In this document: piece by piece, positions 16,441-16,683 of the stretch
How the letters are laid out: each line of letters begins with the position of its first letter
How positions within the stretch are numbered: the stretch's first letter is position 1
IMG/VR virus record: IMGVR_UViG_2718217789_000006
Length of the DNA stretch: 64,000 bases
Reading direction: 5' to 3' (one strand)
Origin: a virus
Taxonomy: Duplodnaviria; Heunggongvirae; Uroviricota; Caudoviricetes
Program-made: the position numbers and the translations under genes
The notes under the pieces: model-generated
Database searches by the model: none
What the model was told of the DNA's origin: nothing
The model's input: the letters and a program-made list of their open reading frames with translations, nothing else

Positions 16441-16683
16441 TTAGCGAACAAACCACTCGTCAGCAGACTCCCAGGTATCTTTCAGCGTCTCCTGAACAAA
16501 AGTTTTTGCAGAATCTTTATCGGCGGTGCGAGTAACTGAAAGGCCATCGTTGCTGGTGGATTTGATGATCACTTCTACATCGTCATAACGTTTACTGACA
16601 CGTCGCAGCATTTCTTGTTGCAGGGCAGGAACAGAACCTTTTGGCATTTTGTTGATTTTGGCTGCGGGGTATCTGTGGGGCAT
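16441..16683 (-). CDS. DinI-like protein (DNA damage-inducible protein I family)
   Basis: 80 aa from internal ATG; ...[63 protein letters not shown] aligns with E. coli DinI (...ELSRRIQYAFPDNEGHVSVRY...ISEILQETWESADDWFV); the 115-aa ORF-track version has an implausible hydrophobic N-terminal extension. Confidence 0.7.

Follow-up and report, generated by a model that had tools for sequence, protein, structure and literature searches.

A DinI-like gene at the right ends of tandem ydfJ prophages is probably a 5′-truncated remnant fused to the attP arm

The chromosomal DinI protein of Escherichia coli (1GHH) is an SOS protein that binds RecA filaments, and its acidic C-terminal helix is implicated in contact with RecA. 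DinI-like genes are also carried by lambdoid phages, including mEp460 (gp21), phage cdtI, Stx1 and Stx2 phages, and BP-4795 (ORF85), in which dinI is the last gene before att and int at the effector-locus end. In mEp460, Stx1_699, and BP-4795, this canonical phage gene encodes 82 aa starting with MR(I/V)EICIAKEK, and a TTGACA-18-AAAAAT promoter, one or two LexA boxes (CTGTTTATCCATACAG and CTGTATACAAACACAG in mEp460, CTGTACATAACTACAG in Stx1_699), and a GAGG ribosome-binding site all lie <60 bp upstream of its ATG. In Salmonella Gifsy prophages, a LexA-controlled dinI-antirepressor-irsA operon opens with dinI, and its antirepressor drives induction (Lemire et al. 2011, PMC3121763). Mitomycin C treatment leads to accumulation of Gifsy-2 DinI, and non-polar deletions of the Gifsy dinI homologues had no significant effect on induction (PMC3121763). 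The ydfJ gene of E. coli O157:H7 has been described as a site at which lambda-like prophages with nleG effector loci cluster in groups of two to four, with an att sequence of 18-19 bp (Nakamura et al. 2021, PMC8112680); dinI does not appear in the text of that study (0 occurrences). Already known are the gene and its family, its occurrence in lambdoid prophages, and the clustering of prophages at ydfJ. A minor detail that has apparently gone unremarked is the 5′ truncation proposed below, with the accompanying loss of LexA control.

We analyzed a DinI-like gene that occurs twice in a 64,000-nucleotide stretch of viral DNA (IMG/VR record IMGVR_UViG_2718217789_000006; hereafter the window), at the right end of each of two adjacent prophages. 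The attachment core was defined by aligning both window junctions with intact ydfJ (attB of strain 675SK2), the K-12 Qin/ydfJ junction, and the attP sites of the free phages HannyBb and mEp460_ev081, which gave a common core of ~TGAAT(T)TATGGATTTC, ~16 bp long and in agreement with the published 18-19 bp att sequence (PMC8112680). This core lies at 16809-16824 in the junction between prophage 1 and prophage 2 (P1-O-P2′), and at 62711-62726 in attR (P2-O-B′), where it provides the ATG GAT TTC start of a truncated ydfJ ORF. To the right of the first DinI-like copy is the tyrosine integrase gene of prophage 2 (16861-18156, minus strand), whose product has Arm-DNA-bind_2 and Phage_integrase domains. 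To the right of the second is the 3′ part of ydfJ (62717-64000, plus strand), which encodes an MFS transporter, is the integration target, and is missing ~28 N-terminal codons. The core is common to attB, attP, and both junctions, and an arm-binding tyrosine integrase is adjacent, as in ydfJ-integrating lambdoid prophages. Target, core, and P arm are the same as in the ydfJ prophage clusters of Shiga toxin-producing O157:H7 (PMC8112680) and in K-12 Qin, although Qin has no dinI at this position. The right-end cargo consists of three NleG-family genes in prophage 1 (PF06416; 14138-16279) and, in prophage 2, an NleC-like Peptidase_M85 gene (60986-61972), encoding a zinc protease that degrades NF-kB p65.

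A 621-bp probe covering 16280-16900 matched E. coli O157:H7 chromosomes with 100% identity, for example that of strain 9000, where the DinI-like ORF is situated between three NleG (DUF1076) effector genes on one side and a site-specific integrase and excisionase on the other. Strain 9000 has a third identical copy of the ORF and P arm just to the left of the region corresponding to the window (L004:28647-29618), so that not two but at least three prophages are arrayed at its ydfJ locus. The third copy adjoins a 5′-truncated integrase gene, followed by IS256 and IS66 (ISEc8) elements, beyond which are the nleG7 and tail-fibre end of another prophage.

Within the window, copy 1 of the ORF (80 aa) is on the minus strand at 16441-16683, with its ATG at 16683 and its stop codon at 16441-16443. 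Copy 2, located with a 47-nt probe from the 5′ end of copy 1 (shuffled sequence gave no matches), is on the minus strand at 62343-62585. The first-pass annotation had stated that the same DinI homologue ends both prophages, and the two proteins are indeed identical; at the DNA level, there is one synonymous change, ATC to ATA in Ile10. The repeat block common to both copies spans 16337-16826 and 62240-62728, and RefSeq names the product 'DinI-like family protein' (WP_001120551.1). Its placement immediately inside the att core was essentially right, in that the ORF is the last gene before att, but the ATG is ~125 bp away from the core and the P arm lies between them (16684-16808 for copy 1, 62586-62710 for copy 2, by alignment). 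At copy 1, this P arm of the ydfJ-type site stands where the dinI promoter would be.

Formal alignment upheld the proposed homology to DinI. Both copies alike matched the DinI family in Pfam (PF06183) with 64.4 bits against a gathering cutoff of 24.2, over positions 1-63 of the 63-position profile and residues 14-78 of the protein. The match to E. coli DinI (1GHH_A) had an E value of 3.1e-9, with residues 7-79 aligned to residues 7-79. A resemblance to the DinI C-terminus had been singled out in the first-pass annotation, and the C-terminal acidic helix does align with TWESADDWFV of 1GHH and is fully conserved. Because the score against the NCBIfam DinI equivalog (NF007893) was 52.3 bits and did not reach the cutoff of 111, the window protein is best classed, from its sequence, as a DinI-family paralogue of the phage type and not as DinI itself. 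It belongs to the same PF06183 fold family as the chromosomal protein and keeps the ...ETWESAD(D/E)WFV helix; however, it is only ~36% identical to it, is prophage-borne, lacks a LexA box, and has an N-terminal strand that is apparently replaced. Homologues were found by tblastn in 133 phage records, typically annotated as 'DNA-damage-inducible protein DinI' or 'RecA filament binding protein DinI'.

The replacement concerns the N-terminus, which reads MPHRYPAA where the canonical protein has MRVEICIAKE, such that a Pro-rich stretch would take the place of beta-strand 1. AlphaFold, run with a 119-sequence alignment, modelled helix 1, strands 2-3, and the long C-terminal helix of the window protein, with strand 1 reduced to residues 3-5 (pLDDT 66 for the first 10 residues, pTM 0.55). 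A canonical control (P0052) modelled with the same sequence set had a strand at residues 2-8 (pLDDT 82, pTM 0.67). The difference from the control is modest, and the poorer prediction of strand 1 in the window protein is suggestive, not decisive.

Alignment with canonical phage dinI located the break in homology. The window gene aligns from codon 9 onward, and homology ends at codon 8-9, within a junction interval at 16655-16668 (minus strand). On its 3′ side, in the sense of the gene, the DNA aligns with canonical dinI; on its 5′ side, it aligns with the P arm found in K-12 Qin and at attP in phages that have no dinI. Codons 9-80 of copy 1 are dinI-derived, and codons 1-8 (MPHRYPAA) are P-arm-derived. 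Over residues 9-80, the protein is 87.5% identical to that of Stx1_699, 83% to that of mEp460, and 69% to that of BP-4795 (69-88% across phage homologues). The 3′ two-thirds of the gene are nearly identical to the Stx1_699 allele, and the ~20 codons that follow the junction are of a sequence type also common among canonical alleles. The ATG is embedded in GGGGCATATATGGGAC, which is part of the P-arm DNA, and the upstream DNA including this ATG shares ~80% identity with the P arm at attP in HannyBb and mEp460_ev081 and with attR of K-12 Qin. None of these three elements has a dinI at this position, and in HannyBb the equivalent reading frame closes after 10 codons.

On the other side of the gene, a conserved segment of ~100 bp (16337-16440, and 62240-62342 at copy 2) begins directly after the dinI stop codon, as it does in canonical phages. 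In the dinI-less HannyBb, mEp460_ev081, and K-12 Qin, only 45-53 bp separate this same segment from the P arm. The attP-adjacent gene is therefore variably whole, 5′-truncated, or absent. The segment itself may be a recombination linker or a weak terminator. A 44-aa plus-strand ORF lying over it (16310-16444; hypothetical in RefSeq) has no Pfam match. The window allele and canonical lambdoid-phage dinI are of the same gene lineage and share both the position before att and the 3′ flank, whereas the window allele is without the sigma70 promoter, LexA boxes, and GAGG, and its 5′ end is attP-arm DNA. In the Stx1a phage record Stx1_699, a 21-bp 'duplication due to insertion' repeat (L003:345-365) lies ~210 bp upstream of the canonical dinI, which shows that dinI is att-proximal also in phages with other integration sites.

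The first-pass annotation had pointed to a search for LexA boxes, and none was found upstream of either copy. Neither CTGT-N8-ACAG nor CTG-N10-CAG occurs in 16300-16900 or 62200-62800 (~300 bp around each copy), and the best 20-mer near either copy has 8 mismatches to TACTGTATATATATACAGTA; the same scan detects the boxes directly upstream of canonical phage dinI genes, which served as positive controls. The window copies thus differ from members of the SOS regulon, which have a LexA box overlapping a sigma70 promoter. Across the whole window, there are six perfect CTGT-N8-ACAG matches against ~0.9 expected (5357-5372, 6894-6909, 51657-51672, 53194-53209, 40077-40092, and 46289-46304). These are probably not LexA operators, because all of them are inside structural genes; four of the six represent two sites duplicated between the tail genes of both prophages.

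No sigma70-like or terminator-like site was found on the gene strand in 16200-17000 by a scan that does find the promoters of the control loci, and no Shine-Dalgarno sequence lies 5-10 nt from any candidate start (both the promoter and the ribosome-site scans look for consensus matches and may overlook signals that are weak or depend on an activator). The annotated ATG has its nearest GAGG at 18 nt, too great a distance, and the alternative starts (ATG at 16755, GTG at 16788, and the internal Met13) have no GAGG. Gene callers disagree on the start, giving proteins of 79, 80, 103, 104, 114, or 115 aa, because no start has a ribosome site. A sib-like retroregulator or terminator between int and dinI was considered and rejected, as the RNA fold z-score was 0.14, with no unusual structure. 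Rfam searches of the whole window at the gathering threshold and of 16250-16900 at E<=1 returned nothing in the int-dinI spacer; a sub-threshold CssrB fragment in 16250-16900 (21 bits versus 76) was discarded. In published expression data, a paper on the ciprofloxacin transcriptome of enterohemorrhagic E. coli lists, with its supplements, chromosomal dinI only, and the dinI of a radioresistance preprint is likewise the chromosomal gene.

The junction is widespread in E. coli. A probe covering 16600-16830 matched 535 out of 5426 complete E. coli genomes (~10%), in up to three places per genome, and the carriers were mostly O157:H7, with some O111, O145, and others. Among 120 representatives of homologue clusters, the N-terminus is canonical in 75 and of the MPHRYP junction type in 23. 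The N-terminal region of the 23 junction-type representatives is near-identical and was found only in E. coli, whereas the 75 canonical forms span E. coli and Salmonella. Several other representatives have independent 5′ replacements (e.g., MFTSFSGSLVSRIPGAVQKGSV... and MLRPGLEKLSTGAV...), which suggests that the 5′ end of prophage dinI may be a recurrent breakpoint for module exchange. Unrelated N-termini joined at about codons 10-17 were seen in the E. coli dinI-like proteins P0008, P0028, P0033, P0044, P0074, and P0076. Strain 9000 itself also has three places with the canonical promoter and 5′ end, which would make its junction copies redundant.

The state of the junction allele varies among its carriers. 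In 18 deposited Stx2a phage genomes (Stx2a_JNE091235, L011:1501-3010, and 17 similar records), it is split after codon 69 by an insertion of ~1.26 kb with an end reading TGAGGTAGCCTGAGTTTAACGG, which we take from this terminal sequence to be IS629. The ORF is intact in all three strain 9000 copies, and junction-type proteins with two different C-terminal variants also have open frames. Open frames across copies and variants, together with the wide spread of the junction, could reflect selection rather than youth and gene conversion. A comparison with the Stx2_499 copy was uninformative on selection on the ORF, because its substitutions are concentrated in the mosaic, core-proximal part of the P arm.

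We consider it likely that each copy is a 5′-truncated, promoterless remnant of a DinI-family gene fused to the P arm of attP. An ancestral lambdoid phage would have carried a normal 82-aa dinI as the last gene before attP, under a LexA-repressed promoter. A deletion or an illegitimate module exchange beside attP would then have cost the gene its promoter, its ribosome-binding site, and codons 1-10 (MRVEICIAKE, beta-strand 1), joining codon 11 onward to P-arm DNA that happens to offer an in-frame ATG and hence the MPHRYPAA start. The product would keep helix 1, strands 2-3, and the acidic C-terminal helix that in DinI contacts RecA. The copies at both prophage ends probably arose from successive ydfJ integration of related phages with a common right-end module. 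Because they have no signals of their own, the window copies are most likely silent or weakly made, and not SOS-inducible. Any transcription would come from int or pL by read-through across att, which would require a tandem junction (as at copy 1) or the excised circle and would not reach the copy at the outer attR (copy 2). The junction region is found in ~10% of the complete E. coli genomes, with O157 genomes having as many as three copies, and the allele should not be counted as an SOS-regulated RecA modulator, because it lacks the LexA promoter and ribosome site of canonical dinI and probably the first beta-strand as well. The finding has little import beyond annotation hygiene, and would illustrate how attP-adjacent genes are eroded or swapped by module exchange in the O157 prophage pool.

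The ORF could instead encode a functional modulator of RecA filaments that is expressed only in a particular context, when the int transcript (from pI or pL) has the ORF at its far end. We regard this as unlikely, and equally so its corollary that a continuous att would be needed (in the excised circle, during infection, or at a tandem junction) and that the protein would be made around integration and excision. At copy 1, the int gene, 177 bp upstream and on the same strand, is the only plausible origin of read-through transcription; there is no terminator-like site and no stable RNA structure between the two genes, and the dinI of mEp460 is also directly downstream of int on the same strand. 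The ORF and its acidic helix are, in addition, intact in many genomes. However, translation would have to start without a Shine-Dalgarno sequence before any of the candidate starts, strand 1 is apparently replaced by a Pro-rich stretch that is poorly modelled, and the allele is IS-disrupted in the 18 Stx2a phage records. The mEp460 dinI, moreover, keeps its own LexA promoter between int and dinI, and canonical copies are therefore not controlled by read-through. Expression through int read-through, if it occurs, would make a small, neat case of att-dependent gene expression. That the truncated dinI is alive as an 'excision-coupled' gene, transcribed only when att joins it to int, seems to us very unlikely; if true, integration, excision, or polylysogeny would be the specific occasions on which a RecA-filament modulator is made, with possible effects on the SOS response or on the induction of co-resident Stx prophages.

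The first-pass annotation suggested that a prophage DinI could tune the SOS induction of its own prophage; such a gene would be SOS-inducible, with feedback on RecA. The family assignment on which this view built is correct, canonical phage dinI genes do have LexA boxes, and the build-up of Gifsy-2 DinI after mitomycin C (PMC3121763) is in line with it. For the window copies, however, this role is unsupported: scans that detect the positive controls find neither a LexA box nor a promoter at either copy, the ribosome site and first 10 codons are gone as well, the allele is IS-split in 18 Stx2a phage genomes, and the Gifsy dinI deletions were without significant effect on induction (PMC3121763). 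The Gifsy operon (PMC3121763) resembles the window locus in having a prophage homologue of the DinI family, but the window copies differ in location, in the absence of a LexA box, and in their downstream DNA, which holds no credible antirepressor ORF as judged from its reading frames. At copy 2, the minus strand has no ORF of 20 aa or more from the dinI stop codon to nleC. The candidate at copy 1, a 56-aa minus-strand ORF (16164-16334), was rejected, since it runs antisense through nleG and is outside the conserved block. We give the proposal of an SOS tuner hardly any credence, and the ORF is probably a leftover that the prophages could presumably dispense with. It is just as improbable that MPHRYPAA is the original N-terminus of a distinct DinI subfamily native to ydfJ phages, from which Qin and HannyBb would derive by deletion. 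HannyBb and Qin keep ATGCCCCA... and the dinI 3′-flank segment 45-53 bp apart, an arrangement that resembles a deletion scar. Against such an origin, the 23 junction-type representatives are near-identical in the N-terminal region and were found only in E. coli while the 75 canonical ones occur in E. coli and Salmonella, the DNA upstream of codon 9 is non-coding P arm in functional free phages, and the ORF has no ribosome-binding site.

Other differences between the two prophages were noted away from att. The tail-tip (J-like) ORF encodes 1176 aa in prophage 1 (8409-11939), whereas prophage 2 has overlapping ORFs of 795 and 423 aa in its place (54709-57096 and 56969-58240), implying a frameshift or pseudogene in prophage 2. 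Within prophage 2, Rfam also identified the sRNA STnc100 (34708-34908, plus strand, 148 bits) and the sok antitoxin RNA of a hok/sok module (28169-28349, plus strand, 61 bits versus a gathering threshold of 59).
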